This document shows positions 17,691 to 60,213 of a DNA stretch of 64,000 bases, piece after piece. Position numbers and translations under genes: made by a program. Source of the stretch: Schmidtea polychroa (lineage: Eukaryota); NCBI GenBank assembly GCA_044892525.1, contig CM097887.1, positions 106,432,397-106,496,396 of the forward strand, written 5' to 3'. Numbering within the stretch: position 1 is the stretch's first letter; every line of letters begins with the position of its first letter. The notes beneath the pieces are model-generated. The model did not search any database. It was not told the origin of the DNA and saw nothing but the letters and a program-made list of their open reading frames with translations.

Positions 17691-19974
17691 TATAATAAAA
17701 CTTTTAACATTCGGAACATTAAATTTTTGCACACAGGTAAGTTTGTGTGTTGCTATAATATAATTTTATCGATTTTTTTTAGATTATAGAAACTCTTATA
17801 TTGTGGATTTCGGTGTATCAGCAGATTTAATAGATGGATAGAAGTAATTAGCTAGACTTACGGCAAAAGGACTTTTATGACTTCCAAGATTTACTTAATC
17901 CGATATCGGATGAAAAACGAGTTGGACGTCTATTTTCCCAATCTATATTGACTCTTATCAAATGCTACTCGTCTCGTCGATTTGGTGGACGTCACTCAAC
18001 GATCTGTCAACGGGATATCTTTATTTGAATGCTACTCGTCTCTCTAGTGTAGCTGATTCTTAGCCAACTGAAAAATCAACGGATTACTTCTCCAAATTGC
18101 CGATGATAATTTCCTTCAAGACTACGGTAAGCATTTTGATTAATTGTCAAGCGATATTTACATTTCTGTCAGGTTGAATTCTTATCGATGATAGTGGCAA
18201 ATCAAAAGCTGGTAATTAAGTCTTCTCAAAGTTAGCAGGCGAGCAAGATGATGAATTTAGCCGCTAACGTCCTCGCAATCTGGAAATGTTGGTAGAAAAG
18301 GAAATCACGAAATTTTTATTATTCTTCGCGAAACGAAAGAATGTTGGAATTATTCGTGTACCTCGAAGATTCTATCAAATGCTTGTTCAAACAGTCGCGT
18401 TTCTTCAAAAGGAAAATTACTCTGAATTTGCGATAATCAAACTCAAGACTCGGATAGAATGTCGAAAATATTGTCAATCTCCTTCCTCATAGAATTTTCA
18501 GTCAATTAGTCATCAGCATCAAAACGATGTGACCTGGAATTTTCTCAATGGAAAGCTTTCGACGACGAATTTTATGGATCCCACTCGATGAAAGAATTAT
18601 TGTCATAAATTGTTCTTCCTCACCGGATTTCCTCACCCCTCACGACCCACGCAAGGATAGTACGCATTTCTGCCCACTACCCTTGGACCGTCGTGAAGGA
18701 CAAATCGACCCAAACTGTCTTAAATCATCATCAAATAAATATGAAATAATGATACTAATGCAAATCAATAAATAAATATTTACCTGGCGACCACGCCATT
18801 TGAATTCCGGGTATGATGACTCTTGATGCTACCAACTTTTACATCCAACAATTGATCAGTATATCGCCCAATTTCATACAAATCTTCGGCTGGCTCTAAC
18901 AATTCAAGTTCATCGTGTCTTGGTATTCATGTTCATGAGTTTTCTTCGTAATACATTCATAATCCGGCCGCATCATACCCGAACTTCAGATGACATCGTC
19001 GCCAGCACCATGAAGAAAAAGCAGAATATTTTTTAAATAAATTTTATTGAAAATAAAATATTTTGTTATTTATTATTCATATTAAACATCAATGATACTA
19101 TACTAATAATCTACCATCCATCAACCAAACATAACTTACCAGAATTCTTTTCGAAGGTGTTGAAAATAAAATCAAGGTGCTACAATTGGTTATCCTAAAT
19201 AGATTTGTTTTCGTTAACTTGATTCGATCTCCGGAATTTATCTCGTCAAAGTGGTTTCCGTAGTGTTCGGTTATGAGTATTGTTCTGCGATCTGTGCTCG
19301 TGGTTTGTAAGTGGTCCCTAGATTTCGTCCCTGTAGAGTTTTTGGTTAAAGTGATGTCTGAAATCTACAATCTGCAATCTGCAATCGTGGATTAAAAGTG
19401 GCAGTGTTTTTAACTTAGAAAATTTTACCTGCAATCGTGGATTAAAAGTGGTAGTCTTCTAATTTTCCACGTTGCTTATATATTATTTTTCGTCCAATCA
19501 GGACACAGTTAACTTGTAATTTTGTTATTTATTATTATTTTTATGATATTTATTGTTTGGTAATAAATTTTAGTGGTCTTGTTTTATTTTTATTATTATT
19601 TTATTGTTTTCTTAATGTTAATTATTTTTCTTATTTTTTCTAAAGATTTATCGTCGTTTTATTACAATATAATTTTTTTTGTTTTAACTAACTTATAAAT
19701 TTATTTAGGAATTGTTTTTATTTTTATTTTGTTTTCCTTAATTTCTTATTTATTTACCTGAAATTTTTTGCTATTTTATTTTCCTTTTATTGTTATGCGC
19801 ATTAGGTAGTTTATTTTTGTATTATTCAAATCTTGAGGGTTTTATTATTTTATTATTTATTCCTATTGACATTTTGTTGGGTTTTCCTATATATTAGTGG
19901 AGTTTTAGGTTAAAATTATTTTATCCTATTTTATTATTTTGTGTGGTTCCTCTCTCATCTTTGATTCAATTTTC

Positions 19975-34489: not shown

Positions 34490-36240
34490 ATTGTTAAAGT
34501 GCTAGTTTCGATTTGCAGTTATTTCTAGACGGAACAGTTGCGATATACTTTTGACGAATCGTATAGTGACCGTAAGCATAGCTTTCATTACAATTGAACC
34601 AATACCTTTTATCATCCAAACATTGTAGAGCTCGTTTTTCTGTCATGAAAGTATACAACTGGTGATTGACACTTCCTGTTTTTTTTTGTTCGATGCTCAC
34701 TATTCCACCATCAGTATAGACTTATTATAGGCTTCATGGGTGATATTAGAATTTGTAAGACTTATTCCTTTGGCTTTTAGTGTTTTTATCGCCTTGCAGT
34801 GAGTAGCACTTGGGACGAAGAAACACCCATTCTTTATATTGATTTCCTTTATTCTCATCCTTGAATTTCCCGATTACAGAACAAATTTTATCTGAGAACA
34901 ATGGATCAGCCACTGGATAATTTGAAGTATCTAGGAACCCATCTTCAATCATTTTTGGATATAGTTGTAAGCGTAAATCAACATTTTTACACTCTAAAAA
35001 GAAGGAATCTGTGTCACCGGCTACTATATTAATTTGACAATTGAATTCTTCTCTATAACTATGTAGTTCTTTATATTGAAACCGGTACATGCGAAGTTTA
35101 GATAAATCAAGTACGGTTTGTCCAATATACTTTGGTCTATCTAAACACACAATTTCCTTATTGAGTATAACAGCAATGAGATCATCCGCAATCTTGATGC
35201 TACGACGAAACATAGGATGACTACAATAAGTTATCAATCTTTTGCTCTTGCTGCATAATCTCAAATTTATACTTTCTTCAAGTTTTCCACAGTTTTACCG
35301 TATAACCTGTTGTTCTTTAACTTATAATAATCTCACTGAAATGAATCTGTACTAGCTACTCTTATTTGGGTATTATAATCAATATATCCCCTGAAAATAG
35401 CTACTGAAAATAGCTCTGAAAGCTTCAAAAACATCAGCCAACAGAAAAACATCCAACTTGAGATATACTAGCATGTAACCTAGCAGTATCTCATAGTTGT
35501 ATTGTTGCCAGATTCGATTTGCATGTATGTAATTTTCTTGACTAACTCCCTCCCAAATTGGTAGTAATTCGGTTATTGACAGTAAAACATCCATTGATGT
35601 AGTCATATCAAAAGGAAAAATGGTTTTACAAGTCATCATCTGTGATTCAAAAACATCTGTCAGTGGAAGACATGGCAAGTTTTATGATAAATTTGCCAAG
35701 CTGCTATTTAAAAATTGTAAAGAATCAATGAATCTAATTCTTCCGCCTTTTGATGTCGCTGTAAGTGTGAGAAACTTTTCTGTTGATTGAGGAATAACAT
35801 TTAAATTCCAATCTGGGAATTTTCCAATTGTATATTTTAATATATGATGAATGTCATATCCACGAAGATTATAAAATACAACAGGTAAAGACGGATTGAT
35901 TCTTCTAGACAAATTACAATCTTGACATGCTGCTCCGAGATATTGACCAGCAAAATGATGATGATCTCGACATTTTTTAATTTCACCATCTTTGATAAAC
36001 TCTGCACAAAGTCCAAATTGTATTTTTACTGTCCCCATTCGTTGAATATGATCTTCTATTTCTTTGATGAGACAATCTGGAACAATAATGCCAGGAGAAT
36101 TAATTGCAGATACATCGCTGGTCAATTCAACACGTGAACCATTTAAGTGAGACTCCCGACGTGGACACAATTGTATGTTAGAGTCTCCATTTCCTTAAAA
36201 TATTGACTTTCATTTTGTGGTGCCAGAGTTTTATCTAACT
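34490..36240 (-). pseudogene. Polinton/Maverick protein-primed DNA polymerase B remnant
   Basis: CRDHHHFAGQYLGAACQDCNL, VVFYNLRGYDIH, RFIDSLQFLNSSL, YLKLDVFLLADVFEAFR, IGQTVLDLSKLRMY, AGDTDSFF, GKFKDE, FLRPKCYS, DDKRY; fragmented, with palm segments missing. Confidence 0.9.
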
Positions 36241-36659
36241 ATATTTATAATTAAAATTAAACAAAATTAAATAACATAACTTGTCACATATTCTTTAATC
36301 TTATTAGGATCGTAAGATGTATTCATATTCGATTGTACTATGAAAAATTAATAAATGTTAATAGTAGAAAGAGTATTACTTTTAGTGATCATACTACTCT
36401 TCGTTTCTTTGAATCTTCTAAGATGGTGTCCATGTTGTCGTACAAACATTAACAACCTACCTGGCGTTATAATGGGACATACGTAACCCGATAAGGTAGA
36501 GCCATTTATCTTGAAATATGATGATGTAAATGAAATTTAATTCAAATTTAATTTTTTTGCACATTTTTTAAAGGAATCATGAATTTTCTTAAAACAATAT
36601 TCGAATTTTTTCGAAGTTTTTAAAATAACGTATTTTCGAAAAATATCATTTCACTTTTT

Positions 36660-37025
36660 CCATGTATTGTTACCCCATCTCTGATTCGAACTGCTCCGGA
36701 TTTGAAGAATTCTTTACAATCTTCTCCTGTGATATTGACTATTTCTCTATCCATTCCTGGTAATATGATGGTTGAGTACGAGTGTTGCCCACAGTAGTAA
36801 TACTCTTCTTGTCACCATACATTCCTTTGCTGGCGTCCTGATGAAATCGGACTCTTGGTAAACGTCGTAGGTAACTTTACTTCGCACCGTCTAGAGTTTA
36901 TTTGGTGTTGCTTGCCTGCATTCTTCTAAATCTCTCAAGGAGTATTTTTCTCCCTTTGTTGATTCATCGTAATCGAATATCATAAATCCATTTGTGCATA
37001 ACATCCATATCATCATTGTCATCAT
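36660..37025 (-). pseudogene. env-like glycoprotein N-terminus resembling chuvirus/class III fusion glycoproteins
   Basis: Signal-like MMTMMIWMLCTNG, then FMIFDYDES..YSLRDLEEC..*..YDVYQESDF..AKECMVTR/EYYYCGQHSYSTII..VNITGEDCKEFFKSGAVRI; one stop, one frameshift, truncated. Confidence 0.6.
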
Positions 37026-37399
37026 TAACGAGTTAATTGATGCTTTCCTACTAGCGGGGTCTTTTATTGGTAATTCCCATTCCGATTCGTTCAACAACTT
37101 TTTCAATTTGATTTGCATTGATCTTTCCTGTTCGATTTTCCATGGTGCTTGGAAAAGTCGCTTTCATCCTCCAATATCATTACCAAGTGAAGAAAAACAG
37201 CAAATAAAAGTAAGTAATCAGGACCGAGTCAGCGATCTGATAGTGGAAATTAACAAAACAATAACAGAAAAAGCTCGAAATAATAGTGAAGATGAGTTGT
37301 TTCCCGTCATTCTCATCATGTTGATTTGCATATTTCGCATTTTTGCTACTTTCTTGAGTTTTTTATTCTCAAATATCGTTTCCTCTTCTGATTCCGTGG

Positions 37400-38950
37400 T
37401 TATTTCTTGTATCATTTCGTGCTTTAGTTGATTTGTTAAATCCAGGTTATTTTCGTCTTTATTTCTCGTTTCGGTATTTTGATCTTCATGTGTTTTCCCG
37501 ATTTTACCCTTTATCTTTTGTGAAAATATCCTTTGGATTCTTTCGTTCCCTTTGAGGACTCGTTGGGGGTTTTCCGTCTTGTTTTTGATTGTAGGTGTTG
37601 CTGGTTTTTCTGGCTCGGCTATGGGTATTCGCCGAAGGTCTTTTTCATAGTTATAACAGTACTGCTATTTTACCATTCTCATCATATTTATTTGTAATGG
37701 TTGAATTTGCCTCTGTTTGTAACGCTCTTGTTTTACTCGTTCTTCTTCTGCTTGTAATCTTTGCCACTCCTGTTGTTGAAATCCATAGTTATTCAAATTT
37801 TCCATGCTCCTCATCATTCCAATGTTTTGAGTTTGTTGCGGTGTCTGGGGTTGGCTTGGACGCTTCAGTTGTTGCATCATCGCTTCATTTGTGATATTTC
37901 TTGCATCACGTTCATCTGCTTTCCTTCGCTAAGTCTGTTGCTGGTTCTGTTGCTGGTTCCTCTCTCTAAATTCTCTTGACATATGTTCCACTTGTTCGCA
38001 GTTATAATATCCTCGTACTCCACAAATGGTTTCCATGTGACCTCTTCGTCCACACCGATTACAAGTTATTTTTTTGAAGCACTCTTTATCTCAATGTCCG
38101 GATTTCCCACGGTCGTTACCATTTCCATTTGATCGTCGTTGGCGTGGTTTAAATATCTGGTGGGCTCCAGGTATAAATTGTTTTACTTTTGGTTCGCCAC
38201 CCTCATTGTTTTCACTTCCTGTTTTTGTTGTTGTCACCGCTATTCTTCCCTCCTCTTGCATGATGTTCATTTGTGCCGAGAGATGTAATTCGCATCTGAC
38301 GGCCCAGGATATGGCCTCGTCTAACGTTTTGCACATCTGGCATCCTACAGATGCTCTTACTTACTCTCTCCTTAATCCTTCCACGAAATATCCGATCAGG
38401 TTCTCCTCTGGTAGTTTTCCGTCCATAGCTTTTCTCGCCAAACTTCTTAATTCGCTTGCGTATAACGTTACCGATTCATTGGCTCTCTGCTTTCGATTTG
38501 CCAGTTCGTTTATTGCATGGTTGAGATGGGTTTGCTTGCCCCAAATGCTGTCTTCAGAAATGTTTTTATATTTAGCCAATCACTCAAATTGATTTTCCCT
38601 ACTTTAGCTTCCAAATACACTTCTAGTGCGCTATCGCATAAAAATAGTGACATCCGTTTGCTCACTGTTTCCGCTGACCATCCACATACTTCGATATACC
38701 TCAAAATTAGTAAGAAAAGTCACAAACTTGTGTGCGTTTCCATTGAAAGGTTCTCCTCGGAATTTCTCTTTGTATTCTTCGGGTTTGACTGCTGGTTGAT
38801 TTTCGTGATTATTGGTTCGGTTATTGGTTCGGTTGCTTCTGATTCTAATACTTCGTCGATGGAAATCCTTGAACTCGTTAAACTTTTGATAGATACGGTT
38901 TGACTGTTAGTGAGTTCTCGTAGACTAGCTCGACTATGGGACCATGTACG
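37400..38950 (-). pseudogene. Ty3/Gypsy gag remnant with CCHC zinc knuckle
   Basis: GEPFNGNAHKFVTFLTNFE, CGWSAETVSKRMSLFL, RKQRANESVTLYASELRSLA, YFVEGL, TLDEAISWAVRCE, CNRCGRRGHMETIC (~38025-38065). Confidence 0.85.
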
Positions 38951-39880
38951 TTTAAGTTCGTGATCGAATAACAGAATCTCCTGATTTCCGGGTTCTGTAT
39001 TTCCTCTGCATATTGAATGACCTCTCTTATTTATCTTTACTGATCTGCTGTGGCGGATGTGATTGAGTTGGTCAACGGGTAATGGTAGTTCGAAGTTGTT
39101 ATTGGGTGGTCGAAGTGTTGATCGTCTATCCTCCGTGATTTCTGCTTTAATTCCTGACTGGAACTTCGGTTTCCTGGTTTATCTGGGATTTCTTCTGACT
39201 TTGTTTCTCTGATTTGAATTGTGCGGGTTCTGAAAGTTGCTTGTCCCAGTGACCTCTTGGGTTCTCCTTCGATACGTTGATTTATCCTTGTGCAGGTTCT
39301 GTATTGACTTTGACTTGACTTGGAATGAATATACAATTTAAAAATGAGACCGTGTTGCTGAGTCACTCACACGACTCTATCACCTTTTCCTTTGTTCACA
39401 AAAGACACCTCTTTAAGGCTCCCCATTTTGCTTTCTCCCTATGATATTTCATCCATTATTCCTCGCGGGTTATAATTAACCATAATCCCTGATTTTTAGT
39501 TGATTTTAAATTATCTATAGGGAGATTATCTATATGGTCGCAGTAATTATCTATCTTTAATCAATTTTAATACTGATAGGTCATTATCGGTAAGTTACCT
39601 ATAATTTCCCCCCATTTACCTATTCCGCTTTTTGCGCATTCCCTTCATTTAATTCTTACCTTTTCGGTTTCTACTTTGGGAGCTTTGAAAATTTCTATTC
39701 TTATTTGTTTCTGCTTTCGAAACAATCAACTAAACAAAATTTCTTAAATTCTTGTCTCATTGGTCTTTGCTTTCGAGACTATTAAAAATTCCTAACTTGT
39801 TAGTTTCTGCTTTCGAAACTTTGAAAATCCCTCTCCCGTTGATTTCGCTTTCAAATCATCAAAATTCTTATCTTATTAAT

Positions 39881-42800
39881 TAGGGTTGTTAAACGAAAAT
39901 CGGAAATCCGATTTTCGATTTTGAAAACGATTATCGGTTTCTTTATTTCACAAAACGATAATCGGTTTTGTTTGTCTTTTACATATTATACAGATAAATT
40001 GAATGCCGGGAATTTAATTTTGTTCATTGTTTACTACTGTATCCATTCAATTTTACCGACAGAAAGGGGCAGTTTTTTTCAACTCGTCAAAACTCCTTAC
40101 AACGTGTTTGTACATGAGTCAATCTTTTCAATTATCCCATTCCTGTAACAACGGCAAGAGGTTGCTCTAGTATTCCAACATATCTCACCGACTGACCAGT
40201 TATTTGTCAGTTGATGTCCGTAATCGGCAACCGCTGATTTGTTTTATACAGCCCCTGACAGGTACTGTGCCCATTAAATCTTTTAATCGGGACCAGCTGA
40301 GGCCAAGGTTGTGGTTGTGTGTTTTAGTATTTGCAGTTTGCCGGTTTTGTTTGGCAACCTGATATTTGTTGCCGAAATCGGCCACCAAAGATTTGATTAC
40401 TGCAGTCCATAACAGAAGCTTAGCTATTAACCCCCTTGACAGGGACTAGATGTGGCCGAGGTCGGCGATTTTGTGTTTAGTCCGCGAAGGTCTATTTTGC
40501 AATCTGATATCTTGCATCTGCGAACCGGTTAAAAGTTTATTCTGGTTTAACTTAAAACCAGAATAAACTGAATTGCATACCGCATCATCTTCATGAAAGC
40601 CAGATGTAAAGAGATCGAAAGACATGTGCTATTCCTCGAATCATAATGTTTGGTTGTTTACCCATTGAAATATGGAAGAGAGTTGGACACTAGGACAAAC
40701 TTCAAGTTTGGGTGACGACCATTCTCAAATTTATTCAGTTTGTTGATCTTTTGACAATGTCTAAGAGGCTGCTCAGGTCGAAGTAAATTGATTTTCGGGA
40801 TTTTAATTTATGACAAGATTTTGGAAAGTCCAATCCATGGTTCAAATCTACTATAAACATATAAACTGTTATATAATTTCCATTCATTCAGTTAGTTGCT
40901 CTTGTAGTAGCTGTTATTAATCCATATAATTGAAAATTGCGGTTTAGTTTAAATATTACGTAATATTCAATAAACATTTTTTATATTATCTAAATCAATA
41001 CAAAATCAGTTTAAATTTATGGGTTTCCGTATAAATAAGTCTGACGTCTGGGACAATTTTGATAAAATTTCGGCGACGATGGCACAATGTAAGCTCTGTG
41101 CACAGCAAATAAGTAGGAGTGGAGGTACTACGGCTGGTTTGCATGCACATTTGCGTAGCAAACATGGTGGATTAACAACATCTTCAAATACTCAAACACG
41201 ATTGACTGCATTGATTACAACACAAAGAAATTGTCCGAGTAGTAAACAGGAAAAAATTACGGCTGCTGTTGCGAGATTGATTTCCGAAAATATGTTGGCA
41301 ATTTCGCTCGTGGAATCGAAATCCTTCCGTGAATTGATGGCGATAGTGGAGCCAGGATATCGTCCTCCGTGTCGTCAGACGATGACAGCACGACTAACAG
41401 CAATGAAAAATAATTTAGTGGTCAAAATGTCGAAATATATCCATGAAAATGTCAAGGACATTGCGATCACTACCGACATCTGGACTAGTGTCACCAATGA
41501 AGCTTATCTCAGTTTTACTGCAAGCTACATTGATACAGACTGGAATATGATGACGCCTGTTCTTGGAACAATTCTGATGACTCAACGCCACACACAAGCC
41601 GTCATTGCTGACCATCTATGTAGTATAGCTGATGAATGGTCAATAAAAGAAAAAATTGTTGCATGTGTCCATGATGGTGCATCCAACATCAATCATGCAG
41701 GCAATCTCAATGGATGGTTTGACGTTCACTGTGCGGCGCATAAATTGCAACTTTGCATCAATAATGCAATGGGCTCCCATGTTGTCACGGATCATCAAAT
41801 TTCCAAATGTATATCAGCTGCAGCACGACTAGTCGGACATTTCTCACATAGCCCAATGGCAACGGGGGAGCTCCTGAAAAGACAGTTGTCCATGGACAAG
41901 GATAAAACGCCACTAAAACTTATTCAGCACTGTAAGACTCGTTGGAACAGCGTCTATGACATGTTTGAACGACTAGTAGAACTGAGATGGCCAGTAGTTG
42001 CAGTATTGAGCGACAAAAACGTGGTGAAATTGAACGATGCCAAAACGTTGGGCATGAAGGACGATTATTGGCAACTGATGACTGAATTGCTCCCTGTTTT
42101 AAAAGCGTTGCAGATCGTGACGTCCGTCATGTCAGCCGAAAGCCAGCCATCAGCCTCTTGTGTTTTTTCCATGTTATGGGGACTCGTGAAAAATCATTTA
42201 ACCATTAAAGAAGAAGATTCTGACATTATGGGTGAATTTAAGAGAGATCTTGCTAAGAATATTTCACGTCGTTTTGGATTAGAAAATAATGAAACAGCAA
42301 AAAACGAATGCGTTGTTGCATCAATTCTCGATCCGATGTATAAGCATCTTCCTGGATTTCCGGACGATTTCAAAAAGCTGGCGTATGAAAATGTCCGTCA
42401 TCTCACCAGACAGCTGCCAGATTGCCCCGAACAGCCGAAGACGAGTCGGGATGAAGATAACATGATCCCACCAACTAAAAGATCACGACCAAATCATGAT
42501 GCAGTTATGTTTCTCCTTGGTGATAGTGCAGCACAACAGGCGCCAGAGGAATCCGACTTTGAATATTACGTCAAATCATCATGGTCGACAAACTCAAGTG
42601 AAACAGCCTTGGAGTGGTGGAAACATAATATGAAACTTTTCCCCAAAACAGCTATTCTTGCCCGGAAGTTCTTATGCATTCCTGCAACCTCAGTGCAATC
42701 GGAACGATTATTTTCGGCCACTGGACGTCTGATAACCAAGCTTCGTAACCGGCTCCTTCCAGATCATGCAGAATCTTTGGTCTTTTTGAATATGAACCAG

Positions 42801-43219
42801 GACTTGTCTGATATTTAAAAATAAAATCGAATTTAGTACTTACTTTTAAATGTTTACACTTTGGAATCTTTGTTTTTGATATCTATGGTTTCGATATGTT
42901 TATGTTTAATTTTAAAATAAGGCCGCCGCAGCACCGGAAAGTTTTATTTTGATTTATACTTTAGTATATACAGGGAAAATTACCGAAGAAATTGAAAACA
43001 AATTTACTTATATGCTTTAACTTTTTACATAAACAGTCAGTTCATATTCTCCTTGTGTGTGGTATAAACTTTGAATAAAACTAATTATACTATACACGTG
43101 CGTGAATAGTAATAATGTAAGTAGCTTTGGTTATGCAAAGTGCAAACGATAATCGGTTTAAAATCGGATTTATACAAACGATAATCGGATTGCTCGAAAA
43201 ACCGATATTAACAACCCTA
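39881..43219 (+). mobile_element. Full-length Ac-type hAT transposon, 3339 bp
   Basis: TIR TAGGGTTGTTAA / TTAACAACCCTA; perfect 8-bp TSD TTATTAAT; subterminal CGATAATCGG repeats. Confidence 0.95.
41019..42818 (+). CDS. hAT (Ac/ZBED1-like) transposase with BED finger, 599 aa, intact
   Basis: WDNF..CKLC..HAHLRSKH, TTDIWTS, HDGASN, CAAHKLQL, TRWNS, IPATSVQSERLFS. Confidence 0.95.
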   Translation: MGFRINKSDVWDNFDKISATMAQCKLCAQQISRSGGTTAGLHAHLRSKHGGLTTSSNTQTRLTALITTQRNCPSSKQEKITAAVARLISENMLAISLVESKSFRELMAIVEPGYRPPCRQTMTARLTAMKNNLVVKMSKYIHENVKDIAITTDIWTSVTNEAYLSFTASYIDTDWNMMTPVLGTILMTQRHTQAVIADHLCSIADEWSIKEKIVACVHDGASNINHAGNLNGWFDVHCAAHKLQLCINNAMGSHVVTDHQISKCISAAARLVGHFSHSPMATGELLKRQLSMDKDKTPLKLIQHCKTRWNSVYDMFERLVELRWPVVAVLSDKNVVKLNDAKTLGMKDDYWQLMTELLPVLKALQIVTSVMSAESQPSASCVFSMLWGLVKNHLTIKEEDSDIMGEFKRDLAKNISRRFGLENNETAKNECVVASILDPMYKHLPGFPDDFKKLAYENVRHLTRQLPDCPEQPKTSRDEDNMIPPTKRSRPNHDAVMFLLGDSAAQQAPEESDFEYYVKSSWSTNSSETALEWWKHNMKLFPKTAILARKFLCIPATSVQSERLFSATGRLITKLRNRLLPDHAESLVFLNMNQDLSDI

Positions 43220-43737
43220 TTATTAATCTCTGCTTTCAAGACACAACAATATTTTGCCCGTGGGTTTCCGTTTTCGAAACCAAAAACAAATTTTCCTTTA
43301 TCCTTATGTAGGTAGGGTTTTATTTTGCTCCTTTTATGCTGCAGCTTTGTTAGTCTATTTCCTTTTGCTATCTTATCTATTTGGTCTTACTCTATGTACT
43401 TTTATTTACCATACCTGTTTGAGTGGATTTACTATTATTACTACTGAGATCATTTAACTTTCTCTGTTATGGTTGGCATTCCTAACCGTATGTAATTGGG
43501 TGGTGCTTTCCCTACTTCAAGGCTTCATTTCTCTAGCTAGCTTTTTATCCGGATGATGCTTTCTCTACCTCAGTTTTACTTAATCTAAGCTGACTTTTCT
43601 AGCTCCTAGTAACTGGCGTCGCTTTCCCTAACTCAATTTTATTCAATTTAAGTCGACTTTTCACATCCTCATGGGTTTCTTTATTCAACTTTTCTTATTA
43701 TCATCTCTCGTCCTAGGTTCACTTATACTCTGACCTA

Positions 43738-45885
43738 TAGTTCCTCAATTACCGTATGTTTTATTTTACCGGTAAACGGTAAATTAACAATCGTATTACC
43801 GGTAAAACCGGTAAATTTCGGTAATAAACATTTTACCAGAAATTAAAACAAAATCATGGTTTAATTGAAAAAAAACATTGCAATATGTTTATTTCATACA
43901 TATAATATAAAAGAAATCATTCAAGAAAAGAACTAAATACAAAAATTTAAATTATTCATTATTTTTGTTAACATTTTGTTTCAAAAAGAAATATTTAAGG
44001 AAAACGATAATGTGCAAATTTTCATCCGATTACCTAGTTCTTATTTTAGTGCAAACTCGGCTCGCTGTGGAGAATGTTCTTTCATTGTCTGTAGATGTTG
44101 GTTTTGCGGTTTGCAGAGCTTCGAACAAAAGTGTGAGATTATGACTTTTTTCCCCGGATATTTCAAAAAATAAAAACTCTTTCTGGACTGATGATAATAA
44201 TCCTACTGGTTTACTGGAAATGGAAACCATAGCTGTAGAAATAACTTTTTGAAATTGAGATTTCAAGTCAGTATTTAAAAGGTCGGTCTCGACATTATCT
44301 TCTGAATCTGATTCTGCTGACTCATCTGATTTGAATAATCTTTCAATTATTTTTTTCCCAAATGCCACTGTCGATAACTTTGAACAGTAATCAAAGTGAA
44401 CATTTCGTTTCATTAAATTTTTTGGATGAAGCATGTACTGTACAAGAGACAATAATTTAATATTACGTCTTTTATCAATTTCTCTTTTCAAACAAACTAA
44501 GAAGTTAGAAGTTATTGGTGAATCGGTATTTTTTTCCAATGTTGAACATAACAATTCAATTACACTTTCCGCGGTAAATAGCGTAGCATCATTTCTTGCT
44601 AAGGCTTCTGCGGCAATCCGAACTGGCTCTAAATTTTTTGAATGTTTATCAAATATTTTTCGTCTATTCTGGCTAACAAATGAAGAGATTTAAATTTTCT
44701 AAGGCTTCTTTTACTTCTTCTTTTACTTGTAAATATCGTTCTATCATGGGATCGATGGAATTCCAACGTGTCTTTATATCTATTTTTAATTCCAGTTCTT
44801 TACCAAGTCGAGTTTTTATCTTCTCTTGCAAAAAATCATTTTTCAATGACGATAATCGAAAATATTTAATGACGCTGCGTAAGGCTTGCAATTGAATGAA
44901 AAAATTTGAATTCATCATTTTCAATTGCCTCGTTTATCTTTTCAATTATCATATGGTTATCTGGTTCAGCAGAGTCACCATCATCAATGTCAGCGTCACT
45001 GTCATATTCCTCTTCCAAAATAATGTCTTTCTCATTTGCAACATATTTTTGGTAGAAAAACTTGGTTACTGATAAATGTAGTGCATAGTTTAAGCATAAT
45101 ACCGGTTCAACTGGACTTTCTCTATTATATTTTTGCATTACTGCTGCACCATCGTTGATTGAACATAAAATATGATGATCAAAATCTACGTTGAACTCAT
45201 TTAATCGGTTTCTTATTATTGCCTGAATATTTTTTGCATCACATTTTCCAGTTATTCTTGCTAAACCAAGATTGTAATTTTCTTTGTCATCATACAAAAT
45301 AATATTGCAATATCTTCTATTTTTGATGCTTGTCCATTCGTCTACAGACAGCGAAAATCGTTTCCCAATAGAAATTTTGGACTGTAATTGTTCTACAAGT
45401 TGTATTTTTATTTTATCGTAATAAACTTTTACCAATTCCATCGTGCCCGTTGAATTTTTTGGAAGCTTGTGTCCTAGTTTATTTATACTTTGCCGAATGA
45501 AAGACGAATTTGTCACGCCATAATAAGAGAAACCATCTAAAGCAATTAGTCTAGACACAATCTCTTCTAAAGTTTCACGTTGTAAATAACTGGATATTAG
45601 TATTTTATCCTTTTTAAATGTAGAGGCAGAAGTACTAGGACCTGCATCATTATCAGCTGCTTTTTTTGATCAAAATTTTATGTACAAGTTTAAGGTGCGA
45701 AATCATTCCACTTTTTGAACCACCATCACATTTAATAGATTTTTACATAATCTGCATATAGCTTCTTTATTTTGCACAATAACCGTATTACCGGTAATTT
45801 AGTAAATATTTTTACCGGTAAACGGTAATGTAAAAATGCGCAATTTACCGGTAAACGGTAAAGGTTTTTACCGGTAGAGGAACTA
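43738..45885 (-). mobile_element. Decayed Ac-type hAT transposon, about 2150 bp
   Basis: TIR TAGTTCCTC / GAGGAACTA; subterminal TACCGGTAAA repeats; frameshifted transposase (SVDEWTS, NDGAAVM, KTRWNS, KPTSTDNERTFS); TSD not resolved. Confidence 0.9.
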
Positions 45886-46361
45886 TACTCTTATACTTTT
45901 GAGTCCTGTTTGTATTTTAGCTATTTCTTACTTTACCGCTCATGAGTGTTTTCCCCTCTCCCTCCTTGCTTGAAACGCACAACGATCGCGATGATCCATT
46001 TCCACATTGGCATGGTGATCAGTGATGCCGCAGAAACTTCTCATCATTTGAAATGGTACCTCGTCCTACATTCCTCCCTTAGGTTGATCGGTTATCTCTT
46101 CCCAATTGGTTTTTTCGGTATATTGTACCGCCCGAAGGTGGCTCGGTTGTTATTGTTTGCTCTTATATCGGGACTAATTCCACATTAATTTTACGGTTCG
46201 CTTTCCTCTTTTTGATTGATATAGAAATAAAGATATACAATAACAAGAATGTTTTTAATTATTTACTTCGTTTACCTACGAATAATCAAGACACAACTAT
46301 GACATTATTATTAATTTATTTAATATAACATTACACCACATTCATTCACTTTCGTATATAG

Positions 46362-46680
46362 TTAATCGCCATAGAAAGCAAGATGAGTTTCTGCTATGGA
46401 ATATTGGCACATAGTACAACATTTTAGTTCTTTGATACATTCCTCGCAATGACTAAGGTATCCGCATGGCAAGATTAATATGCGTATGGGGCGAAGTCTG
46501 CATATGCAACAGGTTCGTAAGATGGACACTTTCTCTTTTATTTTTAGTTCGATCGTTTCGGCTAGTATGTCTAACTGCTCTCGTATTCGGTGATAATCTA
46601 GGTTTAATTCTGGGTGATATCACTGATATAGGGTTTTGTTGCTTACATTACAATCTTTATGGCCTAATCCTAATAGATAA
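46362..46680 (-). pseudogene. C-terminal IAP/RNF34-type RING finger remnant; absent from the ORF track
   Basis: ..EQLDILAETIELKIKEKVSILRTCCICRLRPIRILILPCGYLSHCEECIKELKCCTMCQYSIAETHLAFYGD*; one upstream TGA; the expected His in PCGH is Tyr. Confidence 0.75.
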
Positions 46681-48530: not shown

Positions 48531-48796
48531 CCTTGCATTGATTTACTCGACTTAAAATAATCATTTATCAAAAGCGAATAACACGGATAATGAAACAAAT
48601 TTATAATTAGGCACACAATATTTGAAGACAGCGTCAGTGATATTTACACCTAAACATAGGCCTAAGACAACGTACAGTTTCATGACATGAAATCCACAGA
48701 CTAGACATTTGTGGTCGTGAGTGGGTGCGACTGTTCAAAAAGTAGATGGAGACGCGCCGGCAAAAATTTTGTGTAAAATTAAAAAAATGAAAATAT

Positions 48797-49734
48797 ATAT
48801 CGTGTCTAAATTTTTGATCACACAACCTTAATTCACAGTCTAATGTTCCGATAACATTGATAGGTTGTCCGTTTGCTCCCGATGCAACAGTTAATGTCGG
48901 CACTATTGCTTGTAATTCTTTTTCATTTAATAAATTTGCTTCGATCAATGTCAAATCTGATCCTGAATCAATAATGGCATGTACCGTATGCCTGTTAACT
49001 TTTAATTTGATCGTAGGTTTATGAGTCTTTTTACCCATATTGACCATTAATATTGTTGAGATTCCTCTAATGTTATCTCTGAACTTTTGTTGATCATCAC
49101 TATCTTTGTCATTTTCCGATTTTATTTCATCTTTATACTCCTCCTTTAGCCGTTCCAGCGTGCTAAATGGATATTTCGGTACCATCTCCAATACTGATGT
49201 ACCCAAGGGTGGCATTGTCTCGAAATTCATCTGATACGTTGGGTATGAGGTAGATGGTAGTATATCTGTATTTGTTCTAAACTCGAACCTCTTTAGCATT
49301 TCTTCTTCAACTCGTTCTGGTATTATCTTTTTTCTACCCTCGTATGGTGACAAATAATTCACAGGCCATTCCTGCCGTTTCCTCCTTTTTGCTTTAACAG
49401 GGTACTGTTGTAAAGTACTATTTTCAAAATTTTGAAATTTCGGCTTTTTGTTGTCTGGTTTTATTGAGGTGTTGTCTGAGGTCTCATAGGCCTCTAGGTT
49501 ACCTCTCTCGTCAGAATTGTCATCGTCTCGATGACTAGGTTCATACATTATTAACTGATGTTTCTTTATAGTTTGTCTCTTCATTATCTTAATCTCTTTA
49601 TTATGATGATGAAATACTGCAAAATCTGCACAAACTGGACACATTCCTAGTAGCAACTTCCACGACCATCCCCCGATCTTGAAGATACTATAGGTGGAAA
49701 ATAATTGCGATATGATTATTTTCAATATCATCAC
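48797..49734 (-). pseudogene. Truncated gag-tail/aspartic protease ORF (inverted copy)
   Basis: AIIDSGSDLTLI; identical to 54735-55672, then joined to noncoding sequence. Confidence 0.85.
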
Positions 49735-50886
49735 AATTGCATATATACCTGAACATCCGGCTACAAAAATACCAAAGCTTGTAAATCTACCCCAGATTTT
49801 TCGTATTACATTTTACTATTAAAAAATTAAAATTTAAAATAGTATAATTTATAAATCCACAGACTAGACATTTGTGGTCGTGAGTGGGCGCGACTGTTCA
49901 CAAAGTAGATGGAGACGTGCCGGCAAAAATTTTGTGTAAAATTAAAAAAATGAAAATAAAAGAAGCATTTATTTAAAGTTTTTTGCAAGAATTTAAGCTT
50001 ATTCGAATGAATAATCTTTTATAAAATCTAGGCATTAATCTGTAAATCATATCGAGAAATCAGAAAAAATAGTTTATTAAAAAATGAATAATATAATTAA
50101 GCCATTTTATTTTTCAAAATCTCTAAAACTCCTTCTGCATTTATTCTGTTTTTATCATCGTAATCAAATATTGCTGACAACAACTCTGCAAAAAAGCAAT
50201 TTTTAATAATTTCTGATAACTTATTTTCTCCTTCTGGATCGTTTTTTAAAGAATTTGTTGATTTATCTATTAGGGGAACTCCGATTAATTTGAAAATAGC
50301 TTTAATGGAATCTTCTTTAAATAACGGCTCTTGGAGAATCATAAACGCAATAACGCATCCCGCACTCCATACATCAATGGCTGTCCCGTAACTCTTATTT
50401 GCGCAAAGCAATTCTGGAGCCCTATAAAATCTGATTTAATTTAATAAACTATTATAAATAACAAAATATTCATACTTGGTGCCGATTGAAGTTATATTCA
50501 AACAATCAGGCTTCATTTGGCGCATATGGAAAAAGTTTGAAATCTTTAATCTTAATTCTGCCATATCAACGAAAATGTCTTTTGGATTGATATTGCAGTG
50601 GGCGATATTCAAATTATGCAAGTATTGCAGTCCGGACATCAATTGTCCGGATAATATTTTCATGTGATTGTCTTCTAATTTCAGGTCTTTCAACTTGAAT
50701 CTTTCAATCATACTCAATAAATTTTCAGGCATATATTCAAATAGGATGAGCATCACTTTTGGCGATGGAACCGCATATTTCATCGAAATTAGATTTGGAT
50801 TACAAAGTAATCCCAGGGATTTCAGTTTGTTAAATTCAGTTGATTTAACAATCATTACATTCATATTAGTTGGAAGTAATCCTATT
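48797..50886 (-). repeat. Left arm of a 2090-bp near-perfect inverted repeat (partner 53583-55672)
   Basis: Identical kinase and gag-protease ORF translations on opposite strands; breakpoints located by eye. Confidence 0.95.
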
Positions 50887-53582: not shown

Positions 53583-54372
53583 AATAGGATTACTTCCAAC
53601 AAATATGAATGTAATGATTGTTAAATCAACTGAATTTAACAAACTGAAATCCCTGGGATTACTTTGTAATCCAAATCTAATTTCGATGAAATATGCGGTT
53701 CCATCGCCAAAAGTGATGCTCATCCTATTTGAATATATGCCTGAAAATTTATTGAGTATGATTGAAAGATTCAAGTTGAAAGACCTGAAATTAGAAGACA
53801 ATCACATGAAAATATTATCCGGACAATTGATGTCCGGACTGCAATACTTGCATAATTTGAATATCGCCCACTGCAATATCAATCCAAAAGACATTTTCGT
53901 TGATATGGCAGAATTAAGATTAAAGATTTCAAACTTTTTCCATATGCGCCAAATGAAGCCTGATTGTTTGAATATAACTTCAATCGGCACCAAGTATGAA
54001 TATTTTGTTATTTATAATAGTTTATTAAATTAAATCAGATTTTATAGGGCTCCAGAATTGCTTTGCGCAAACAAGAGTTACGGGACAGCCATTGATGTAT
54101 GGAGTGCGGGATGCGTTATTGCGTTTATGATTCTCCAAGAGCCGTTATTTAAAGAAGATTCCATTAAAGCTATTTTCAAATTAATCGGAGTTCCCCTAAT
54201 AGATAAATCAACAAATTCTTTAAAAAACGATCCAGAAGGAGAAAATAAGTTATCAGAAATTATTAAAAATTGCTTTTTTGCAGAGTTGTTGTCAGCAATA
54301 TTTGATTACGATGATAAAAACAGAATAAATGCAGAAGGAGTTTTAGAGATTTTGAAAAATAAAATGGCTTAA
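53583..54372 (+). pseudogene. 5'-truncated second copy of the pseudokinase (intron 53994-54038)
   Basis: Matches the minus copy from IGLLPTNM onward; the first ~63 codons are missing. Confidence 0.85.
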
Positions 54373-54734
54373 TTATATTATTCATTTTTTAATAAACTAT
54401 TTTTTCTGATTTCTCGATATGATTTACAGATTAATGCCTAGATTTTATAAAAGATTATTCATTCGAATAAGCTTAAATTCTTGCAAAAAACTTTAAATAA
54501 ATGCTTCTTTTATTTTCATTTTTTTAATTTTACACAAAATTTTTGCCGGCACGTCTCCATCTACTTTGTGAACAGTCGCGCCCACTCACGACCACAAATG
54601 TCTAGTCTATGGATTTATAAATTATACTATTTTAAATTTTAATTTTTTAATAGTAAAATGTAATACGAAAAATCTGGGGTAGATTTACAAGCTTTGGTAT
54701 TTTTGTAGCCGGATGTTCAGGTATATATGCAATT

Positions 54735-56965
54735 GTGATGATATTGAAAATAATCATATCGCAATTATTTTCCACCTATAGTATCTTCAAGATCGGGGGA
54801 TGGTCGTGGAAGTTGCTACTAGGAATGTGTCCAGTTTGTGCAGATTTTGCAGTATTTCATCATCATAATAAAGAGATTAAGATAATGAAGAGACAAACTA
54901 TAAAGAAACATCAGTTAATAATGTATGAACCTAGTCATCGAGACGATGACAATTCTGACGAGAGAGGTAACCTAGAGGCCTATGAGACCTCAGACAACAC
55001 CTCAATAAAACCAGACAACAAAAAGCCGAAATTTCAAAATTTTGAAAATAGTACTTTACAACAGTACCCTGTTAAAGCAAAAAGGAGGAAACGGCAGGAA
55101 TGGCCTGTGAATTATTTGTCACCATACGAGGGTAGAAAAAAGATAATACCAGAACGAGTTGAAGAAGAAATGCTAAAGAGGTTCGAGTTTAGAACAAATA
55201 CAGATATACTACCATCTACCTCATACCCAACGTATCAGATGAATTTCGAGACAATGCCACCCTTGGGTACATCAGTATTGGAGATGGTACCGAAATATCC
55301 ATTTAGCACGCTGGAACGGCTAAAGGAGGAGTATAAAGATGAAATAAAATCGGAAAATGACAAAGATAGTGATGATCAACAAAAGTTCAGAGATAACATT
55401 AGAGGAATCTCAACAATATTAATGGTCAATATGGGTAAAAAGACTCATAAACCTACGATCAAATTAAAAGTTAACAGGCATACGGTACATGCCATTATTG
55501 ATTCAGGATCAGATTTGACATTGATCGAAGCAAATTTATTAAATGAAAAAGAATTACAAGCAATAGTGCCGACATTAACTGTTGCATCGGGAGCAAACGG
55601 ACAACCTATCAATGTTATCGGAACATTAGACTGTGAATTAAGGTTGTGTGATCAAAAATTTAGACACGATATCAAGGTCACTAGACAATGTATGGCAGAA
55701 TGTATCGTGGGAATGGATAAATTGAAAAAGTTAAAAGATATTGTATTCGATTGTGCAACAGGTGAACTAGTGAAAATGACGGGTAGAAAGCGGAAAACCT
55801 ACAGTGTGGATGTAGTGTTTTTGGATAGAACGGTGACAATACCACCGAGGACCGAAACAGTTTGTTTTGTGGCAACACACCAAGAGGTGTAAGGAGATGT
55901 TATTTTCGAACCGAGTGAGCAGACTTTTTCCAGACTTTAAAAGACAATTCATGGTGATGACCGATGCATGCACAAGAGGTATAGGTGCGGTTTTGGGACA
56001 GAAAGACGAAATTGGCGATGAATACGCAGTAGCTTATGCAAGTCGTGGATTGAAGCCACACGAAAAAAGTTATGCTGTAATAGAATTGGAAGCATTAGGA
56101 TTAGTATTTGCAGTGGAAAAATTTAGTCATTACCTATGGGGCCGAAAGGTAATTTTCTATACAGATCATAGACCATTGCAATGGCTGTTAAAACATAGAG
56201 ACGAAGCATCAAAGTTAGTATGATGGGCATTGAGATTACAGCCATATAATATCGAAATTGTATATCGTAAAGGTAAAGCTAATGGTAATACAGATGCATT
56301 ATCATGAATGGAGCAAGAGCCCGAATTAGAAGATATAAAGGAATTAGAAGGGACAATCTTCATGCTAACAAGAGAGGCTAACACTTTGAGCGATTTAGTA
56401 GAAGCACAGAAAAATGATGATGAAATCAATAAGATCAGACAAGCTATAGAAGCAAAGGCCATATCAAATGAACTTCAGAAATATTGGAGAAACATAAAGA
56501 TAAATTCATATTGGAAGAAGGTCGAATTAAATACGTGGAATCAAGAGATAATGTAATATTAGTGCCCAAGAAATACAGAGAATCACTATTATTACAATAC
56601 CACGATGGAGCACTGGGAGGATATCTCTCAGCTAGCATACACTGTCAAGATTAAAAATGAAATAATTCTGGCCAGATATAAAAGATGATGTTAAAAAGTG
56701 GTGTCAATCATGTAAGATATGTATAACCAGAAGGAACACAGGCAGGAAACCACATGTCCCATTAAAACCAATGTCAGTACCGTCCTCGCCAATGGAGATG
56801 ACTGCTATGGACGTACTAAGGCCCTTTAAAGAATCAAAGATGGGAAATAAATTTATCATAGTATTTTGCGACTACTTAACGAAGTGGCCCGAAGCATTCC
56901 CAATTCCGAATCATAAGGCAGACACAATTGCCAGAATCTTTGTAGAACAAATTGTATTTAGATAT
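54735..56965 (+). mobile_element. Ty3/Gypsy pol derivative lacking RT: protease, RNase H, partial integrase
   Basis: IIDSGSD (protease); at ~55915 jumps to PDFKRQFMVMTDAC..AYASRGLKPHEKSY..YTDHRPL (RNase H); YHDG..FWPDIKDDVKKWCQSCKIC, AMDVLRP, FCDYLTKWPEAFP (integrase N-half); stops present. Confidence 0.9.
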
Positions 56966-57332
56966 GCTTACCGACAGAGAAAGGCTAGATTAGTGAGTAT
57001 TCCTGGTTGTAAAGGAATAAAGGCTTTGGATTGGTTTAGTATCAGAAAGGTAGCGAGTGTAAACCAGCCCCGCATAAATAAATTAATTAATAATTGTAGA
57101 GTTCAAAATACGTTAAACGGGACAACGAGAGATAAAACCTCAACTTGGTTATTCTTAATCATGATAGGGGGAGTAATTTGCATGATTTTAATTTTGATAT
57201 TAACCACCCTATGGATGCTTAGATTAAATATGCGGGATATTCGTTATTGGGAAATTATTTACGAAACCGAGGTATAGGGGGAAAGTCTCACCATATACTA
57301 GGAAGTGTAAATATATATTTTATCTATTTTAT

Positions 57333-59011
57333 ATGTTATTTATATTAGTATGTAAACTAATGTGGGCTCAAATGAGCATCGGTAAAATCAGACATCAGCG
57401 TATGTCGACTTTGGTTACCCTGCGAGGGTCTATCACGAAAGTGATAAAAGCTGTTAATTATTTTATTTTTAGAAAAATGAATTATAACAGAGAACCAAAA
57501 CCACCAGTCAAAGCAAATCGACGACACCCATTGGCAACGTACAATTCCCAGACTCGAGTTGAAACTGAAGTATATAGTACATACAAAGAAGAGTACGTAT
57601 ACAGGTTCATCGGAACTACGGTCGCAGCAAAAATGAATCACCTCACCTCAAACTATTGGTATTATCCCAGGAGAGTGGATATTCCAAACGATTTCAAATT
57701 CGCAGGAGGGCCTCGAAAGCAAATGATGATAACGGTTATAAATAACCAAGGTAGATTAAAATTGGCGGAACTATGTAGAGATTATGGTTCATGTCCGAAA
57801 TTGGAAAACATTTGGATCCATGCGATCAATAGGCCATTCACTGTGTTTATGGCGGGATTAGAGTTACCTGTTGAATTAGAAAAACAGTGTACCCTGGAGA
57901 TATACCACGCTGATGGACGAGAACGGAATATTATGATCCAGGCAGCAGCAGTTGATACCATAATCGCAGTAGAAATCTTGGATTTCAGGAAGCCATACTC
58001 TATAGTTAGCAAAAACGAGCCAACTTGGATTTACAATGTAAATAAAGTTGATATACAGCAGTGTAAATCATTTGTGAGGAAGAAGTTAACCAAAGCCGAG
58101 GAGGACGAGGCTACAATTTTCATATCGGCAGGTTTTGCCAAATCCCGAATCGAACTGAAGGAGACAATTATCCAAATCGCAATTATGGATATGAGGGGAA
58201 ATAATTTATTGAGTGCGGTAGTGACTCCCAGAGACCCTGTAAAACACTACCAAACGCACCAATACAAGTTAAAGGAACCTGATATTAGAGGAAACCTCGA
58301 CGAAGATGATTGTTATCCTCTGATAAGATCTGCGATAAGAAAATACTTGTAGGTATTTTGCTTAAAGATCTGATCTCGGTAGCCAATCTACCAGTGCAGC
58401 GGATACTGAGTATTCGTGACCTTTCTGCAAATAAACTATTGGAAACCAGAGGAGTCCCAATGATTCATGGTCATTACAGATTGGGATTCCCGACGAAAAC
58501 TTTCCTGCGTACGGTTCCCGGAGAACCAAGGAATTTAGTGGTCACCAATGAGGCACTGGCGATACGTGCGGTTTATTTACATCTCAGAAACGAATGGTTA
58601 GACCATATCACGAAACCCCAGGAGGAATTCATTTCCGTAACTACAGCAGCGATAGTTGAGCAGGAAATGACGCAAAAGAAGAGATTACCCGAGCAACCAT
58701 CTACATCAGGGCAACCCAAGCCTAAGAGAAAATCACCTGTGGACTTACCACCGCCTCCAGCTATATCTATTGGAGAAGAAGATGAATATGAAACATGCGT
58801 TAGCGAAACGGAGACAGCAAAATCACCCAAACAATCATCGGGAGCTGCCTATCAGCCAAAGGATAAATCGGAAAATGCGGTCAGAAAAGAAAATCCAGAA
58901 GGAGGCAAGGTGAAAAAGATGTTAAAGAAAATATTACCCATAAAAAGACAATTTTTTCAAATTTGTCAGACTTCCCGCCAACGGAAATTCTTCAACGATG
59001 TCTTATTTTAA
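57333..59011 (+). pseudogene. Accessory ORF with a DEDDh (REX4/ISG20-like) exonuclease-fold region, split by a 1-nt frameshift near 58340; copy 1
   Basis: QIAIMDMRGNNLLSAVVTPRDPVKHYQT..IRSAI / KILVGILLKDL..IRDLS..EALAIRAVY; acidic catalytic motifs not found. Confidence 0.6.
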
Positions 59012-59690
59012 AGCTCATTGCAATACCTTTCGAATGTGGTATAGAAATCCATATTATCAATATTATTGGTAAAGATATTATTTTTTCAAAATATTATTTT
59101 TTCAAGGTCATTTATATTTTCAAGGTCATTTATATTTTCAAGGTCATTCATATTTTCAAGGTCATATTTTAAAATTTAAATTTTTAGAGTTCCCACCAAT
59201 GGAATTTATTGGCCGATGGCTAATTTTGAAGCCCACTGCAATACCTTTCGAATGACGTATAGATATTCATATTATCATTATTATTAATAAAGATATTATT
59301 TTTTCAAAATATTATTTTTCAAGGTCGTTTATTTTTTCAAGGTTCAAAATCTGTTCAAAGCTACTGTTTTAGTCAATACGAACCAGATGAAATAATCGGT
59401 TCCATCGCCAAAAGTGATGCTCATCCTATTTGAATATATGCCTGAAAGATTGAAAGATTCAAGTTGAAAGACCTGAAATTAGAAGACAATCACAAGAAAA
59501 TATTATCCGGACAATTGATGTCCGGACTGCAATACTTGCATAATTTGAATATCGCCCACTGCAATATCAATCCAAAAGACATTTTCGATGATATGGCAGA
59601 ATTAAGATTAAAGATTTCAAACTTTGGAGGACGAATAATAAAATTGCGCTTATCGTCATATTAGAAAATGACCAGCGAGTCGAGAGATTA

Positions 59691-60158
59691 GTGCTCAACC
59701 ATGCTTATCTAAGTAGAAGATGGACAATCAAACCAGATACCGTGACAAAGGCGAACATTTCGTATTTGGAATTTACGGAGAGAACCGGTTGGTATACAAT
59801 ATATCAAGAAATAGTAAATCTAATACCTCCCACAAAAGGAGAACTAACTGGCAAAGAAGGAAAGGCTAGATTAGTGAGTATTCCTGGTTGTAAAGGAATA
59901 AAGGCTTTGGATTGGTTTAGTATCAGAAAGGTAGCGAGTGTAAACCAGCCCCGCATAAATAAATTAATTAATAATTGTAGAGTTCAAAATACGTTAAACG
60001 GGACAACGAGAGATAAAACCTCAACTTGGTTATTCTTAATCATGATAGGGGGAGTAATTTGCATGATTTTAATTTTGATATTAACCACCCTATGGATGCT
60101 TAGATTAAATATGCGGGATATTCGTTATTGGGAAATTATTTACGAAACCGAGGTATAG
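59691..60158 (+). CDS. TM-anchored protein fragment (155 aa); further copies at 62572-63039 and, partially, 56980-57277
   Basis: C-terminal hydrophobic helix WLFLIMIGGVICMILILILTTLWML with a short tail; NIS and NGT sequons. Confidence 0.5.
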   Translation: MLNHAYLSRRWTIKPDTVTKANISYLEFTERTGWYTIYQEIVNLIPPTKGELTGKEGKARLVSIPGCKGIKALDWFSIRKVASVNQPRINKLINNCRVQNTLNGTTRDKTSTWLFLIMIGGVICMILILILTTLWMLRLNMRDIRYWEIIYETEV

Positions 60159-60213
60159 GGGGAAAGTCTCACCATATACTAGGAAGTGTAAATATATATT
60201 TTATCTATTTTAT

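Follow-up and report, generated by a model that had tools for sequence, protein, structure and literature searches.

The closest described systems are the planarian retroelements Burro/GYPSM1, which originate from Jurka 2007 and Grohme 2018, as cited in PMC6431247. Section 7 of PMC6431247 (2019) describes these elements with env in frame between gag and pol. The env of Burro matches glycoproteins of the mononegavirus type and was tied to the gypsy Env by HHpred; a dUTPase was also found by HHpred, and a BIR domain was reported as well. The proposal that Burro is a provirus has already been published, as has the arrangement itself (PMC6431247, section 7; PMC13524379, in its accessible text). 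The same accessible text of PMC13524379 (2026) reports GAG-ENV-POL elements with an ENV of the HSV/gB type in Platyhelminthes, Nematoda and Bryozoa, including six in S. mediterranea (Smed_errantivirus_1-6), as well as Gypsy elements with a chuvirus-like glycoprotein in arthropods; it contains no occurrence of "Burro", "polyprotein" or "splic", and hence nothing on topology or splicing. The mosquito BEL/Pao elements with a chuvirus glycoprotein are called Anakin (PMC7642597; PMC12440569), and PMC12440569, in the portion available, names Anakin as a case of chuvirus env. A literature search that mostly did not extend to subscription papers found nothing on the topology of Burro env or on Burro particles.

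The DNA analysed here (the window) is a stretch of 64,000 nucleotides from Schmidtea polychroa. At 36632-37040 on the minus strand it encodes the N-terminal ~120 residues of a glycoprotein of the PF24664 (Monjiviricetes fusion) family, readable across one stop and one frameshift. Very probably, this segment is the front end of the glycoprotein of a 30-kb Burro-like Ty3/Gypsy LTR element, in a copy that is dead, truncated and missing an internal stretch. A sequence-only reading had recognised here a series of N-terminal motifs of a chuvirus-like class III fusion glycoprotein, and the six-frame translation confirmed the series on the minus strand: a Met-rich hydrophobic stretch starts at 37028 and is followed, in one frame, by F-D-Y, SLRDLEEC, YQ and C motifs; an in-frame stop is located at 36891-36893, and YYCGQHS and ITGEDCKEFFKSG are found beyond a frameshift near 36800-36807. 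The first conserved ectodomain cysteine is absent from the window copy. The same reading had placed the remnant at 36660..37025; the location was right, but the homology is slightly longer, spanning 36632/36645-37172, and the DNA homology to family copies stops at 36645, the point at which the element is truncated. The hydrophobic stretch that it took for a signal peptide does exist, but as an internal segment of a polyprotein and not as the start of a gene. A recurrent border motif, I-N-x-L-M, stands just before this segment in the window, and motifs of this kind precede both the signal-like segment and the protease.

For the Pfam scan the stop was read as X and the two pieces of the remnant were submitted separately. 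The first piece matched PF24664 at profile positions 5-79 (E 0.0078) and the second at 84-131 (E 8.2e-5), both under the curated cut-off when taken alone; the unbroken 90-aa window ORF by itself matched no Pfam family. With the profile of alignment A1, which includes a family copy and is therefore not independent of the element family, three remnant pieces were ranked among 1953 six-frame window peptides with E-values of 2.8e-9, 0.004 and 0.009. The pieces are ~70% identical to a natural unbroken copy. Contigs from two public runs, X1 and X2, are identical to the window over 36692/36746-37026 and 36998/37002-37320. This agreement indicates that the stop, the frameshift and the junction at 37172 are not assembly errors, with the reservation that the assembly may have been built from these very runs. 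Among the X1 and X2 contig pieces listed, none bridges the 3' junction at 36645.

Table 1. Parts of the retroelement copy in the window (positions within the 64,000-nt stretch)
Feature	Position	Strand	Evidence
Glycoprotein remnant, second piece (~ectodomain residues 65-120)	36632..36799	-	PF24664; 71% identity to natural copy
Glycoprotein remnant, first piece (~ectodomain residues 1-60), stop inside	36807..36986	-	translation, PF24664, comparison with natural copy
Internal signal-like hydrophobic segment (predicted signal)	36987..37040	-	translation; same segment in natural copies
End of polyprotein linker, ahead of glycoprotein (after Bcl-2-like region in full copies)	37041..37172	-	tblastn, copy A residues 1168-1212
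~120 bp from the element's internal region, inverted	37174..37295	+	73-84% DNA identity, opposite orientation, in 4 of 5 sibling loci; tblastx
Decayed gag: Retrotrans_gag, CCHC knuckles, Q-rich tail; several stops/frameshifts	37291..39124	-	77-84% DNA identity to siblings
Element leader, gag-adjacent part	39125..39877	-	collinear with siblings K and M
Element leader, middle part; separated from gag-adjacent part by inserted stretch with hAT transposase ORF	43218..43736	-	sibling comparison
Element leader, 5' part; beyond a second insertion carrying remnants of transposase-like ORFs	45907..46672	-	sibling comparison

The gag located upstream of the remnant is recognised by Pfam with X at the stops (Retrotrans_gag, E 5e-6; zf-CCHC, E 9.4e-5), and it is the only Ty3/Gypsy coding domain of the window copy. 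No pol was found between this gag and the glycoprotein segment. The sequence-only reading had been correct on this point for the window; as a sign of an independent env capture the point does not hold, because the native position of env is between gag and pol. In tblastn, the linker match runs continuously into the glycoprotein match. The junction with the inverted piece stands in for about 2.5-3 kb, comprising the SUMO-like and Bcl-2-like region.

A genome search with 36600-37200 as the query gave 320 candidates, of which 40 were scored. Every scored candidate matched; they comprise the window itself, its twin at 100% identity and 38 further sequences at 73-85%. All 38 non-self matches end at query position 556-557 or earlier, with none crossing 37172, and both window junctions are common only to the twin among the 40 scored matches. 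It follows that the window contains one damaged copy and not a gag-env subfamily. A non-autonomous gag-env subfamily with the window's junctions was considered and rejected, those junctions occurring only in the twin (40 of the 320 candidates scored). The close spacing of gag and env in the window results from an internal deletion, pol is missing through truncation, and the copy is dead. The twin of at least 60 kb of the window is 99.6-99.9% identical and is located ~564 kb away on the same contig (107000001-107070000; L041-L047); it is either a recent segmental duplication or a duplicated haplotype.

The surroundings of the copy hold several other elements. An open 614-codon hAT transposase frame (zf-BED, Dimer_Tnp_hAT) lies inside the element leader at 40974-42818(+), and further transposase-like remnants are located at 44030-45669(-). 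Beyond 36645 come a high-copy repeat and polymerase remnants. The latter (34746-36533, minus strand) belong to a protein-primed family B polymerase (PF03175, below cut-off), are 44-62% identical to a 1155-aa ORF in locus L072 and, by inference, are Maverick/Polinton-like; the high-copy repeat, at 35970-36533, overlaps them and occurs as inverted pairs 2-6 kb apart. Pieces of the family LTR, including a 250-codon LTR-borne ORF, were found on the minus strand at 19420-19867, 6165-6883 and 5718-5874. They are collinear with a 3' LTR but scattered 17-30 kb downstream, and they may derive from this insertion or from a different one.

Four full copies, A-D, were examined over 50 kb each. The Pfam order in copies A and D is Retrotrans_gag, zf-CCHC, SUMO-like, Bcl-2, PF24664 (E ~1e-70), RVP, RVT_1, RT_RNaseH, Integrase_H2C2, rve and ankyrin, where the SUMO-like match (E 0.015) and the Bcl-2 match (E 0.011) are weak and below the Pfam cut-offs. 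According to tblastn, copies B and C have the same domain order, and in copy C gag and glycoprotein share a single unbroken 3052-codon frame. Env is in frame between the Bcl-2-like region and the protease. The full-length copies that the sequence-only reading proposed to search for were found, with the order gag-env-pol and not with env after pol. Copy D also has a separate RING/MATH ORF downstream of the ankyrin repeats. Copies A and C are 30.0 and 31.4 kb long and are bounded by TG..CA LTRs 99.5-100% identical, with 4-bp target duplications. A probable primer-binding site is located 8 nt inside the 5' LTR end in copy A (L018, near 3796-3820) and in copy C; we take it to resemble the 3' end of tRNA-Pro. 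Each of the four copies is broken at least once in the polyprotein, at differing places.

The assignment to Ty3/Gypsy made by the sequence-only reading is upheld by the gag domains of the window and by the hallmarks of Ty3/Gypsy (Metaviridae) in the full copies, namely Retrotrans_gag with CCHC, the order PR-RT-RH-IN and a Ty3-like RT. The top PDB match of the RT-RH region is the Ty3 RT (E 2.6e-93), and the scan of copies A and D revealed no BEL/Pao-type Pfam family. In the same two copies Pfam found neither dUTPase nor BIR at E 0.05, in a scan that covered part of the small ORFs. After the ankyrin repeats, a signal-like segment is followed ~270 residues later by a hydrophobic helix (L034:8541-9737; copies A and D); in copy C, only the first of the two hydrophobic segments is over the threshold. 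The post-ankyrin segment possibly represents a second membrane protein; it matched no Pfam family, and the ESM Atlas gave no usable match for it.

Some relatives of the window copy are better preserved. The whole 3.5 kb is essentially one open frame in five of the 13 non-window loci fetched (L008, L011, L012, L013 and L015), and PF24664 is detected in unbroken copies at E 1.7e-71. In a wider family search, 68 of 2581 candidates were scored, and all matches listed were over the cut-off. The five siblings closer to the window copy, at 77-84% DNA identity, have all decayed; the glycoprotein survives in two of them, both times after gag and before the protease, and has been deleted or truncated away in the other three. 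Another two loci are fragments that lack gag. The linkage to gag that the sequence-only reading presumed is present in other copies: the order gag-glycoprotein-protease was observed in six of 11 family loci, a count that excludes the window and its twin, five were truncated or uninformative, and no locus showed another order.

The genome also contains two further families with env before pol (L057/L059, L061/L062, L065-L067; L069-L071), whose glycoproteins are 37% identical to that of the window's family. One of them runs from gag to integrase in a single unbroken 3334-codon frame in all three copies fetched. A second PF24664 remnant of the window, at 54657-55889(+) and 48637-49812(-), represents a different gag-env-pol family. 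It comprises the C-terminal end of the glycoprotein (profile 536-635, E 1.1e-10) and runs in frame into a protease, with RNase H and integrase remnants extending to about 57160; part of it lies inside a perfect 2090-bp inverted repeat (48797-50886 / 53583-55672). The end of the window, 56979-64000, is occupied by a tandem array of a near-identical 2881-bp unit, which goes on past the window end in the twin locus.

In a natural copy, the glycoprotein has a short signal-like segment, which stays under the 19-residue hydropathy threshold, an ectodomain of 561 residues and a single strong membrane helix. The ectodomain contains 14 cysteines, and the conservation of every one of them reaches at least 90% among 106 aligned sequences. 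No PDB match was obtained by sequence with the glycoprotein as the query. The AlphaFold model of the natural copy (pLDDT 88.8, pTM 0.65) gave herpesvirus gB as the best Foldseek matches in the PDB, with an E-value of 7e-14 and a TM of only about 0.4 at an rmsd of about 12 A. The best match in BFVD was the glycoprotein of Tacheng tick virus 4 (E 6e-38, TM 0.67; 22% sequence identity), followed by chu-, qin- and xinmo-related glycoproteins; the qin-, xinmo- and other chu-like glycoproteins score nearly as well, so that the ranking does not single out a donor family. On this modelling, the protein is predicted to have a gB-like class III fold with a long central helix and conserved cysteines, and the chuvirus-like class III character that the sequence-only reading had claimed, with Foldseek as the check for it, is borne out by PF24664 and by these model-based matches. 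Among five young copies, dN/dS is 0.033-0.046 in nine of ten pairs and 0.18 in a near-identical pair. Young copies hold env under strong purifying selection (dN/dS ~0.04). The dN/dS of the window fragment, where synonymous sites are saturated, was not used.

Beyond the observed domain order, LTRs, 4-bp target duplications, copy number, breaks and purifying selection, a mode of action can be proposed for intact copies. The polyprotein would be threaded once through the ER membrane. Gag would remain cytosolic, the internal signal-like segment would start moving the ectodomain into the lumen, and translocation would end at the only strong transmembrane helix, which would bring the chain back and place PR-RT-RH-IN in the cytosol. 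The parts would be freed by signal peptidase and the element's own protease, and fusion of the particles with another cell would be the task of the glycoprotein. The window copy has lost ~2.5-3 kb by a deletion with a short inversion as well as everything past glycoprotein residue ~120, has gained a stop and a frameshift, and has been interrupted by DNA transposons. Since that stretch, the rest of the glycoprotein and the frame are missing, this copy can perform none of the entry and threading steps. Taken further, the young relatives may be working enveloped retroviruses of a flatworm-like host, with the fusogen outside, gag and pol inside, a second membrane protein at the C-terminus and particle passage between cells or animals, in at least three such families in the genome. 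We regard this wider proposal as possible but rather doubtful.

It is quite conceivable, if somewhat short of probable, that env is instead kept for a role within one cell or animal, such as membrane anchoring of assembly or transfer from soma to stem cells, and not for spread between animals. Purifying selection shows function and not its range, and BURRO1 RNA, according to the part of PMC8532177 that is available, is found at higher levels in the intestine and increases upon smedwi-2 RNAi. Against a purely internal role speaks the predicted completeness of the class III ectodomain, with all of its conserved cysteines. A less likely variant concerns expression: the element would be the same, and the RNA for env would arise by splicing or internal initiation and begin at the Met-rich signal segment. 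Several methionines open that segment, and in Drosophila gypsy a spliced env RNA is the rule; however, env is in frame with gag and pol in several families, an arrangement unneeded for splicing. The contigs show no joint into the env start, and contigs cannot decide between a spliced and an unspliced env RNA. For now, translation of env within the polyprotein is the preferred reading.

The origin of the glycoprotein was approached by a search of 1.84 billion representatives, which returned 938 proteins at E<=0.001. The best 17 of these matches are long proteins with 29-47% identity. Out of 14 top matches scanned, 11 contain gag, Bcl-2-like, protease or pol domains, one has a zinc knuckle and two have the glycoprotein only; one top match is labelled as a bacterial MAG protein and is probably a contaminant. 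Stand-alone glycoproteins, including a tick chuvirus protein and beetle sequences, appear lower, at 21-28% identity. For the FastTree phylogeny, 29 of 150 matches were left out as short, and the tree holds 59 of the remaining 123 sequences; it is midpoint-rooted without an outgroup and names no donor. The polyprotein-type glycoproteins and the copies of this genome form one clade (0.987) apart from the stand-alone glycoproteins, among which P0129 (1000 aa) is placed. Of 22 pattern matches in viral contigs, none was confirmed. The nearest relatives are env-pol polyproteins and not free viral glycoproteins, which indicates that the capture is ancient and not host-specific; by these sequence comparisons, it predates this element family.

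This bears on the independent env acquisition suggested by the sequence-only reading, that is, a host-specific capture of a chuvirus glycoprotein by a Gypsy element lacking pol or carrying env downstream. In the window, gag and glycoprotein are close together on the same strand with no pol between them, and the top viral match of the predicted structure is a chuvirus glycoprotein, but env is upstream of pol in six of six informative loci, the window's junctions are shared with the twin alone among the 40 scored matches, and the best 17 relatives are mostly retroelement polyproteins that fall in one clade; such a capture is very improbable, and both the clustering with env-pol polyproteins from other sources and the tree speak against it. 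Still less credible is a chuvirus endogenous viral element landed by chance beside a Gypsy gag, although PF24664 is a family of viral proteins and arthropods often carry EVEs of chuvirus glycoproteins (PMC7642597, in its available portion): the 130 bp preceding the glycoprotein are the element's own linker, the continuous linker-glycoprotein homology refutes chance, and the DNA is 73-85% identical to retroelement copies, compared with a protein identity of 22% to the glycoprotein of a true chuvirus. A Chuviridae EVE outside a retroelement frame was likewise rejected, the glycoprotein being embedded in a polyprotein whose nearest relatives are retroelement polyproteins.

As a dead fragment, the window locus is of little import. 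To the published Burro-provirus proposal, the family contributes the assignment of env to a chuvirus-like class III, a model of its structure and a dN/dS of ~0.04, and its many young copies are material for observing whether infectious particles form and how an env inside gag-pol reaches the membrane. The infectivity of young Burro-type copies is a question already posed in print, and no answer was found in the literature searched.

Like Anakin, as described in the available parts of its reports, the family is an LTR retroelement carrying a captured glycoprotein of the same family; unlike that BEL/Pao element, its RT is closest to Ty3 and its env lies within the polyprotein ahead of pol. With the glycoprotein of Chuviridae (Tacheng tick virus 4 G, P0032), it shares PF24664 and can be aligned across the ectodomain and the membrane helix, but the identity is 22%, and the viral protein is the product of a stand-alone RNA-virus gene. 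It resembles Smed_errantivirus_1-6, as presented in the accessible text of PMC13524379, in the GAG-ENV-POL order, the gB-like ENV and the multiple intact copies; the ENV row of Smed_errantivirus_5 in the supplement looks closest, judged by eye only. With Burro/GYPSM1, it has in common a length of ~30 kb, kilobase LTRs, a CCHC gag, SUMO-like and Bcl-2-like regions, PR-RT-RH-IN and ankyrin repeats, as well as env in frame between Bcl-2 and the protease; this membership rests on the architecture and the by-eye likeness to Smed_errantivirus_5 and not on direct sequence comparison. As in Burro of D. tigrina, MATH/TRAF is in a separate accessory ORF, located downstream here, upstream in the D. tigrina element and inside ORF1 in S. 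mediterranea (PMC6431247). Unlike in the Burro/GYPSM1 report, Pfam detected no dUTPase or BIR here, and env is modelled as class III. The layout is of the published Burro kind; compared with Burro/GYPSM1, the window copy belongs to an older sister subfamily and survives as a broken fragment. It is an ordinary fossil rather than the product of a new capture of an envelope gene.
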